Assembly: GCF_003018115.1 (NCBI RefSeq)
Contig: NZ_CP027458.1
Strand: one strand, 5' to 3'
Length of the DNA: 64,000 bases
DNA from: Escherichia coli
GTDB lineage: Bacteria; Pseudomonadota; Gammaproteobacteria; Enterobacterales; Enterobacteriaceae
A program made the position numbers. This document shows, piece by piece, positions 42,001 to 45,000 of the stretch (position 1 is its first letter; every line of letters starts with the position of its first letter).

Positions 42001-45000
42001 AAGGAGGGGTGACGGGCAAGTTTTTCCGCAGTACGGGTTTCATCCAGTGAGGAATACAGCCGGACATCACGACCGCTGCGGGCCAGACCGTTCAGGGTGG
42101 CGTTGTCCATTGCCATCTGTGTAACGGAGGCAAAAACCTTCGCACTGTCACTGACGGAATGCCCGGGCGTTTCCACCCAGCCGTTCTCCAGCTTCAGTGC
42201 CGTGAACGGTGAATCAGCCACAGGCAGGGTGGCCGGTTCAGCCCGCCCCGGCACAACAACCGTCATCGCATCTTCACTGACGGATGCCACCTGCAGGCGG
42301 TCACCGCCGGAGACGCGGAGTCCGGGAATTTTCCCTGTCACCCTCAGACGCTCGCCGTCTGCCACCGGCATTTTTTCCGGCCGGAACAGCGACCAGCTGC
42401 TGTCCAGAGAAGAAATACGCACCACCTGCGTTTCACCCTGCGCATCCCGCAGGGTCAGGCTGTGACTCTGCGCCGTCACCCGGTCTATCACATAGCGGTC
42501 ATGACTGCGTGTCTCCGGGTTCCACTGCTCCATCACCATTCCCGGGCGGTACATATCCCGCAGATAACGGCTCCGGCTGTCCAGCCAGACCGGTGACAGT
42601 GCCGTCATGGTCACCTCCTGATGTCCGAGCACGTCCTGTGTTTTCAGCTCACTGCGAATGGCCTGTGTCAGTATGGCCTGTTCCCGTACCCCGCTGACCT
42701 GTGCCACGCTCTCTTCTCCGGCTTTCACGCTGACCGCAAAATCTCCGGCCAGCCGGGCATAGCGGACATTACGGTCCGGTTCACTGATGATGGTTGCCGG
42801 TCGCTGCTCTCCCCCCTGCCAGCGATATGTGTTCACCCCGGCATCTTTCATGGCCATCAGTGCACTGCCTGTACCGGTTCGCTGCCCGCTGTCGGTTATC
42901 AGGACCTGTACGTTATGACGTGCGGCACCGTCCAGCAGGGTTAACGTCTCTTTCAGGGAGAGTTTTTCGCCCTGGTCGACGATAACGGTACTGCCCGGCG
43001 TGAAGGCCATGCCTTCCAGCAACTGACGACGTCCGGTTATCAGCTCACCGGACAGCCGTTCATCCTGCTTCAGGTTCATCTGCGAGCGACGGTCAGCAGC
43101 GATAATCTGCACCTCCCGCCCCTGCTCCCGGGCCATCATGACCAGTTCAGCCACCCGCTCACGCTGCCCGGCTGCACCACCCTGCCCGGACACAATGGCC
43201 AGCGACGGACGGTCCTGTGCCAGAACACTGACCGCATCGCTGTAACCAGCCGTCCGGGGGACACTTTTCTCCGGATGTACAGTCACCCGGTTCTGTTTCA
43301 TGATATCGCGACTGAGTGCCCGGACGGACAGCTCATCGAGCACATGAATTCCTGATGTGAACAGCCCCTTCTCACGATCGAGGGGGATAAGCTGCTCACG
43401 GCTGATGGCCTCATCGATACCGGCGCGCGCCCGCTCAATTACACCGGCTTCCGGCGGCAGTATACCGACCGTTCTGGCCAGCACGTCCGTATACGTGAAC
43501 TGCACTTTTCGTTCACTTAATCCGGCAATGGCCTGTGTCACCGCCTGCTGCACATCCGGCCCGTCCTGTGAAGCGGGTCCGGGTGTCTGCGTGCGGGTCT
43601 CTGCCCGTTGGTCCGCCGCGTCACGATACGCCCGGATGTCGAACCCGGTTTCCTTCAGCGTCTGCATCCATTCAGCCATTCTGACTTCAGGATCGACGTG
43701 CTGTTTGGATTTTCGCGTATCCAGTGCCGCCACATCCCGGGATTTCAGCGAGGCGTCCTCCCCGACGGCCGCCCGGATAGCCTGCGAGCGTCCGGAAAAG
43801 GCCTCCACCGGTACGCCCGGCATTTCCCACATACCGTGCTTACCCACCACTTCAGTTTCATAGCCCAGCGCCTCAACGCGCTGACGTAACTCACTCTGAT
43901 ATATTTTCCCGAACGCAATACGGTTCGCGAGCACGTTCTCGGAAAAACCGGTTTTCCCCACTTTATCACTGCTCAGTGTCTTCCATTCGCCGTTATGCTG
44001 CGTGACATTAGCCACCACCGCATGCGTGTGTAACTGTGGGTCCTGATCGCGACTGGTGTCGTGGTTAAAGAGTGCCATCACCAGATTACCGGTCAGTACC
44101 GTTTCTGACTGTCCGTCCGTCATCACCCGTGTGGAAGCCAGCGCCTCCACCTGACGGACAGCAAAATCCACGGCCTGATTATGTGCATCAATCAGGCGCT
44201 TATCGCCACCTAACATGGCCATCATGGAGACACTTTTGGGGGCGGAGAAGGTCAGGTCGTAGCCGGGACGATGCTTATTACTGCCATCCTGCATACGGCT
44301 TAAATCCGCTCCGTCCGGCAGTTTCCCCTCCAGAAGACGGGTAAAGACATCCTTATCAACACTGCCCTGCAGCCCAAGCTGTTCAGCCCCCTTGCCCGCC
44401 CAGCGTTCCCCCATGCTACCCAGCACATAGTAATTATCCTTGTCGGTGTAATAGTTTCCGGCACTGCCTGCCGATTTAACAACGCTGAAACTCAACATCA
44501 GAAATCATCTCCCGGCTCAACATCCTCCCCGCGCTCCCGGTGCACGTTGATATTCACCTCTTCACGGCGCTGCATCTGCTGCTGGATATCCGGATTCTGC
44601 TCCCGTTGCCATGCCTCATAAACGGCCATATCCATCACTTCACCGGATTCACTGATCCCGGGTGGCAGTTGCTGTTCCATCTCTTCTTCCGGTTTCATTT
44701 TCAGCTCCTGCTCGATCCCCCCGGCCGGAACATTCACACCTGTATCTGACTTCTTATCGTTGATGACAGGAAACACTGGCTGTTGTGGCTGTTGTGGCTG
44801 TTGTGGCTGTTGTGGCTGTTGTGGCTGTTGTGGCTGTTGTGGCTGTTCAGCCTGAGTCACATCTTCTCCGGAGGCAACCTCCGGTTCGAAGAGACTGGCC
44901 ATCTGACGACCTTCTGCTTCCCTTGCGGCAAGTACGGCACTCAGACGGTTCTCCATTTCCGGGTTGATGTCACGCGGAATAAACTCCGGAGCAACCTTCG

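Follow-up and report, generated by a model that had tools for sequence, protein, structure and literature searches.

The C-terminal extensions of F-like TraD proteins were described as 150–200 residues long, unstructured and in touch with TraM tetramers, and the QQP region and the TraM-interaction domain were drawn as separate parts (Lang et al. 2011, Mol Microbiol, PMC3245843, Fig. 8). The title of Beranek et al. 2004 names the 38 C-terminal residues of R1 TraD as both necessary and sufficient to bind TraM. Plasmid specificity was assigned to the last 8 residues of the tail; single TraM–TraD tail contacts were proposed to be weak and to be strengthened by avidity via the TraD hexamer, helped by a tail that was predicted to be flexible (Wong et al. 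2011, PMC3159463). The structurally defined TraM contact comprises the last ~15 residues, and their deletion cuts transfer at least 100-fold (PMC8406263). In six closely related S. Enteritidis plasmids the 9-bp repeat of traD was present in 2, 6, 7, 14, 14 and 23 copies, and indels between these hybrid virulence plasmids arose mainly from changes in its copy number (2–23; Front Microbiol 2020, PMC7311658). The QQP motif has thus been published already, as have its variability across F-like plasmids and its extreme variation between near-clonal ones (PMC3245843, PMC7311658).

The locus compared with these systems lies in a stretch of 64,000 nucleotides of Escherichia coli (contig NZ_CP027458.1 of assembly GCF_003018115.1), here called the window, to which all positions refer. 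The host gene was delimited by open reading frame, Pfam search and annotated relatives, and its neighbour by open reading frame and annotation in relatives:

44498–46696, minus strand: traD, type IV coupling protein, 732 aa plus stop
39228–44498, minus strand: traI, relaxase/helicase, 1756 aa

Pfam searches of the TraD product returned TraD_N (PF12615, residues 32–128, E = 5.1e-35), which is the F-specific N-terminal membrane domain, TrwB_AAD_bind (residues 172–561, E = 4.1e-117) and TraG-D_C (3e-19). A Walker A motif, GTVGAGKS, was located at residues 192–199, and its G197, K198 and S199 were invariant in 54 homologues. Plasmids at least 99.9% identical to the window are annotated with the gene order traT – hypothetical – traD – traI – traX – finO, and traD also lies between traT and traI here, as is characteristic of the F-type coupling protein. 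A first-pass annotation, made from the sequence, had assigned the repeat to traD, and the three Pfam domains together with this gene order bear it out: the gene is an F-type TraD, a T4CP of the VirD4/TrwB family with a C-terminal extension. The plasmid is F-like, conjugative and a pO113-like STEC IncF plasmid. The start codon of traI overlaps the stop codon of traD, and nothing is inserted between the two genes in the window; in many F-like plasmids a vapBC toxin-antitoxin pair is found at this place, which makes the region ~670–750 bp longer. A 203-aa ORF (46978–47589, minus strand), which has no match in Pfam and starts with an N-terminus resembling that of lipoproteins (MLIRKYIMLSICFLIQGC...), lies between traT and traD; the near-identical plasmids have a hypothetical protein annotated here, which measures 612 bp in three of them and 480 bp in the other two.

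The repeat itself was characterized with Tandem Repeats Finder, direct period-9 extension, translation and shuffled sequences:

44777–44847, minus strand: perfect 9-bp tandem array, (CAACAGCCA)x7.9 on the coding strand

Tandem Repeats Finder reported a period of 9, 7.9 copies, 100% matches, 0% indels and a score of 142 (unit TGGCTGTTG), and no other array in the neighbourhood; period-9 extension gave identical limits, and the array measures 71 bp. The annotated 'about eight perfect copies' agree with this count, and of the annotated limits (44779–44847) the end was exact but the start lay 2 bases inside the true start at 44777. The coding strand reads CAG CCA (CAA CAG CCA)x7, in frame in the 732-aa TraD ORF, and is translated to QP(QQP)7, a tract of 23 residues (TraD residues 618–640) in the context ...EDVTQAE-QP(QQP)7-VFPVINDKK; a Q/P motif is encoded by the repeat, as had been claimed. 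When the whole window was scanned with a three-unit probe allowing up to 3 mismatches, 6 overlapping matches were obtained, all inside the array, against 0.00 expected by chance (100 dinucleotide-preserving shuffles).

Instead of TraD, such a repeat might serve reading frames on the plus strand or a signal at the DNA level, for instance an iteron-like protein-binding array. Two plus-strand ORFs do exist mechanically over the array (44783–45730, 315 aa, MWLLWLL...; 44785–44967, 60 aa, MAVVAVV...), but both begin as the translation of the repeat itself, both are antisense to a strongly supported traD (Pfam 4e-117), and traD alone is annotated here in relatives; the two frames were rejected as mechanical by-products of the repeat. 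The three-unit probe is without matches elsewhere in the window. The two unit alleles found in wider sampling (below) differ solely at the third codon position of the traD frame (CCA versus CCG), and constraint therefore acts on that frame. A role of the repeat outside TraD is thus hardly credible.

With the QQP motif of Lang et al. 2011 (PMC3245843) the tract shares the gene, the place upstream of the TraM-interaction domain and the tripeptide; its 23 residues equal the length given there for R1 TraD, whereas F TraD has QPQQP. The background is a pO113-like STEC virulence plasmid here and R1 or F there, and nothing else essential differs. Both features of the TraD QQP variable region were found, namely consecutive QQP in the C-terminal extension and length polymorphism among related plasmids.

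The tract was placed in the protein by PDB sequence search, an AlphaFold2 model and an alignment of 54 TraD sequences, and the tail was placed by sequence identity and from the literature:

44978–46216, minus strand: TrwB-like nucleotide-binding domain, residues 161–573 (PDB sequence search; AlphaFold pLDDT mostly 70–90)
44669–44902, minus strand: predicted disordered linker with the array, residues 599–676 (AlphaFold2; 54-sequence alignment)
44501–44614, minus strand: last 38 residues, 695–732, matching the R1/F TraM-binding region

TrwB (1e9r/1gl6) was identified as structural homologue of residues 161–573 (E = 3.9e-47). This TrwB-like domain was the only part with a solved homologue, and no solved structure covering the repeat was returned by the PDB sequence search. 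In the AlphaFold2 model pLDDT was below 50 over residues 599–676 (means of 27–39 for 10-residue blocks over 601–670) and no secondary structure was formed over residues 604–680; two short helices followed at 690–709, and the tail was again of low confidence at 705–732. The array (618–640) sits mid-way in this predicted disordered stretch. It begins 44 residues past the end of the TrwB-like domain and ends 54 residues before the last 38. Among the 54 homologues, the alignment columns flanked by the conserved LFEPD and GG(T/V)EQEL motifs are highly variable in length as well as in sequence, with P, A, Q, S and T abundant; tracts of the QPQ type were seen in Escherichia- and Salmonella-like TraDs and their closest relatives in the alignment, and much longer P/A-rich stretches occupy the same position in Klebsiella- and Raoultella-type TraDs. 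Because these columns vary so widely, the position of the tract appears, from the alignment, to act as a variable spacer across the TraD family.

The array had also been annotated as lying in the region that contacts the relaxosome. This holds in so far as it is within the C-terminal extension that docks there, but the mapped TraM contact is elsewhere, in the last 8–38 residues, and starts 54 residues (counting the last 38 aa) to 84 residues (counting the last 8 aa) downstream of the array. In sequence, the C-terminus is an acidic tail with an aromatic residue at its end, as in the F-type tail that binds the tetramerisation domain of TraM, and its last 12 residues were identical to those of the F-type cluster representatives P0002 and P0003; traM is located outside the window. 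The array does not overlap the TraM-binding tail, and nothing ties the QQP tract itself to the contact.

Close relatives were collected with a 20-kb query (window 36000–56000), which five STEC IncFIA/FIB(/FIC) plasmids matched at 99.9% identity or more. After alignment each plasmid differed from the window by 4–17 SNPs (~20 kb was compared for four plasmids, and 7 kb for L001). Their arrays contained 6.9, 8.9, 14.9, 16.9 and 20.9 copies versus 7.9 in the window, corresponding to indels of −9, +9, +63, +81 and +117 bp, and in each of the five pairwise comparisons the array was the only multi-base indel. The array of 16.9 copies belongs to CP129265 and that of 20.9 copies to CP027375. The units are perfect and head to tail, and close relatives differ by whole units only, as in a VNTR. 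Copy number of the array changes far faster than point substitutions accumulate. The pattern seen here (6.9–20.9 copies) is that of the S. Enteritidis plasmids as described in print, which belong to another host and another plasmid lineage (PMC7311658).

For a wider view, 22 sequences were read directly: the window, the five near-identical plasmids and 16 more plasmids, chosen to span the range of similarity among the 4038 PLSDB records that matched. In this set, of which the 21 loci other than the window were chosen partly for varied length and are not a random sample, the Q/P tracts comprised 5, 12, 17, 17, 20, 20, 23, 23, 26, 26, 29, 29, 32, 32, 35, 38, 44, 47, 50, 50, 53 and 62 residues. 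The steps were whole units throughout, all 22 alleles were in frame across the tract and its downstream flank, and unit identity was 100% in all 21 expanded arrays; the remaining sequence (L019) carries the unexpanded F-type allele QPQQP, which is imperfect in DNA (CCA versus CCT). Two synonymous unit alleles, CAA-CAG-CCA and CAA-CAG-CCG, were tied to different flanking sequences and were never found together in one array in the 22 sequences; the alleles differ by lineage. Units that are uniform within each array and synonymous between lineages are what is expected where a single unit has been expanded and contracted again and again. Clusters of proteins at 90% identity were tried as a source of copy numbers and rejected, as length variants were collapsed in them and the representatives had tracts of 5–12 residues only.

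Region lengths were then compared in 90 records, taken as evenly spaced samples from a plasmid collection and from complete E. coli genomes and without those records in which vapBC or IS26 separates traD from traI. Subtraction of the window's length gave a multiple of 9 bp in 87 of them (range −54 to +153 bp). Region length yields the unit count to within one unit: the CCG lineage has an unrelated upstream 9-bp 'PDV' insertion, and because that lineage is off by one unit, the lengths are reported as multiples of 9 only. Variation of the repeat number among related plasmids, as proposed in the first-pass annotation, is thus seen at both scales (6.9–20.9 copies in near-identical plasmids; tracts of 5–62 aa in the 22 sequences), and the invariant number in all relatives that would have spoken against it was not observed, region lengths shifting by nines in these 87 of 90 records. 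Tracts above ~24 units were absent from the sample, for which either selection or a mutational equilibrium could account. Among 5426 complete E. coli genomes, 2810 contained the traD 3′ region, and 3222 RefSeq E. coli records matched it; 34 of the matching places lay on chromosomes instead of plasmids, a sign of F-like elements that may have integrated or of arrangements of the Hfr type. One sampled record (H99) carried IS26 within traD.

Arrays of this kind invite the objection that the window's array, or the differences between its relatives, are repeats collapsed or expanded during sequencing or assembly. The short-read contig L022 (GCA_051797145.1, 3200–3288) ends 3 bp before the array, and ...VTQA or ...VVQA, the exact boundary of the array, is where the sequences of three cluster representatives stop (P0017, P0019 and P0108, one of them representing 4849 partial sequences). 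Because contig and protein ends fall at this boundary, short-read assemblies are disturbed by the array, and the data suggest that they often break at the traD repeat; copy counts in some public assemblies may be wrong, as long arrays come near or exceed the length of short reads. However, the array of the window has 71 bp and is shorter than ordinary reads, and the differences are exact multiples of 9 made of perfect units, which random long-read error would not yield. Complete plasmids from many different laboratories show the variation, and it has also been reported from combined Illumina or Ion Torrent and MinION data (PMC7311658). An artefact as the source of the array or of its variation is therefore very improbable.

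The observations are most probably explained by an in-frame tandem repeat in traD that is altered by replication slippage and forms a spacer whose variable length is tolerated by TraD. Perfect 9-bp units would misalign when the DNA is replicated, through slipped-strand mispairing or an unequal exchange between sister strands, and whole units would be gained or lost in consequence; rolling-circle replication during transfer may provide extra chances for this. The 'slippage-prone' character that had been ascribed to the array is likely, judged by the pattern among the plasmids compared. Because 9 bp equal three codons, every change in copy number keeps the frame, and traD would never be switched off by the array, protein length alone being altered. 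The QQP tripeptides would form a flexible or extended spacer, situated between the TrwB-like ATPase domain (which ends at ~573) and the acidic tail binding the TraM tetramer on oriT. If the length of this spacer is, as we assume, only weakly constrained, variants would build up fast and probably in a near-neutral manner.

The number of QQP units could instead be a length dial under selection, changed quickly, reversibly and in frame. Spacer length would then determine how far the six TraD tails reach towards TraM at oriT or how avidly they bind it, or it would alter the TraD-dependent entry of RNA phages, e.g. R17, and plasmid populations would hedge transfer efficiency, substrate specificity or promiscuity towards mobilisable plasmids, and phage resistance. 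The simple-sequence contingency loci of Haemophilus, Neisseria and Campylobacter are phase-variable, with short perfect repeats inside genes and copy changes that outpace point mutation; these repeats shift the reading frame or the promoter spacing and so switch expression on or off. In traD, in contrast, the unit is three codons within the coding sequence, so that protein length alone changes and phase variation does not result; in-frame changes lack the on/off switch that defines the classical contingency loci. A functional analogy, not homology, is offered by proline-rich spacers such as the (Glu-Pro)n/(Lys-Pro)n segment of TonB, a low-complexity repeat which links a membrane-anchored or catalytic part to a distal binding module and tolerates changes in length; the QQP tract of TraD is predicted to be disordered. 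The six different counts among six plasmids only 4–17 SNPs apart, a change that outpaces point substitution, and the maintenance of a perfect array in two separate unit alleles would suit such tuning. In the same vein, heterogeneity of the TraD C-terminus, including QQP length, was speculated to underlie the differences between F and R1 in R17 infection, and phage selection was speculated to drive TraD C-terminal diversity (Lang et al., PMC3245843). On the other hand, F TraD is functional with QPQQP alone (PMC3245843), a literature search found no phenotype tied to repeat number, and variation, even without selection, is to be expected of a hypermutable repeat that lies in a disordered linker. 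Adaptive tuning is therefore considered unlikely, and nothing in the present results points to a role in transfer or phage susceptibility; were it true, repeat number would add a new regulatory layer to the spread of resistance and virulence plasmids.

The practical importance of the traD array is modest. The array is a very fast-evolving marker, which can tell apart IncF plasmids that are otherwise almost the same or wrongly make them look different; short-read assemblies break or miscount at this spot, and the count of distinct TraD protein 'alleles' in databases is inflated by it. In the protein, it would mark a length-tolerant spacer between the motor of the coupling protein and its relaxosome-docking tail.

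Apart from the transfer genes, the window contains a cluster of virulence cargo (564–30221) that is typical of a pO113-like STEC plasmid:

564–3578, minus strand: RTX haemolysin
3562–4077: hlyC-sized ORF adjoining the RTX haemolysin
5332–9645, minus strand: YadA-type trimeric autotransporter, 1437 aa
17852–22015, minus strand: SPATE serine-protease autotransporter
28134–30221, plus strand: TonB-dependent receptor

Within this cluster, a 111-bp tandem repeat (26213–26637, 3.8 copies, 98% identical) was observed inside an ORF on the plus strand (25409–26902), where it is translated into 37-aa units (ARIEGDAQTLKSANTYTNKQVNALEQNTNQQLQHEAT); the encoded protein has 497 aa and contains YadA head and anchor domains. 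This protein resembles what we take to be its counterpart, the STEC autoagglutinating adhesin Saa, in which the number of 37-aa repeats is reportedly variable, and the 111-bp repeat is a candidate for a second in-frame variable-repeat locus in the window. A further tract of ~165 bp (10003–10168) consists almost entirely of A and C on the plus strand, with degenerate AACAA / AACAAAACA repeats; it is flanked by the trimeric autotransporter gene (5332–9645, minus strand) and a lactate permease gene (11045–12601, plus strand) and might represent a spacer in a promoter region or a site of slippage.
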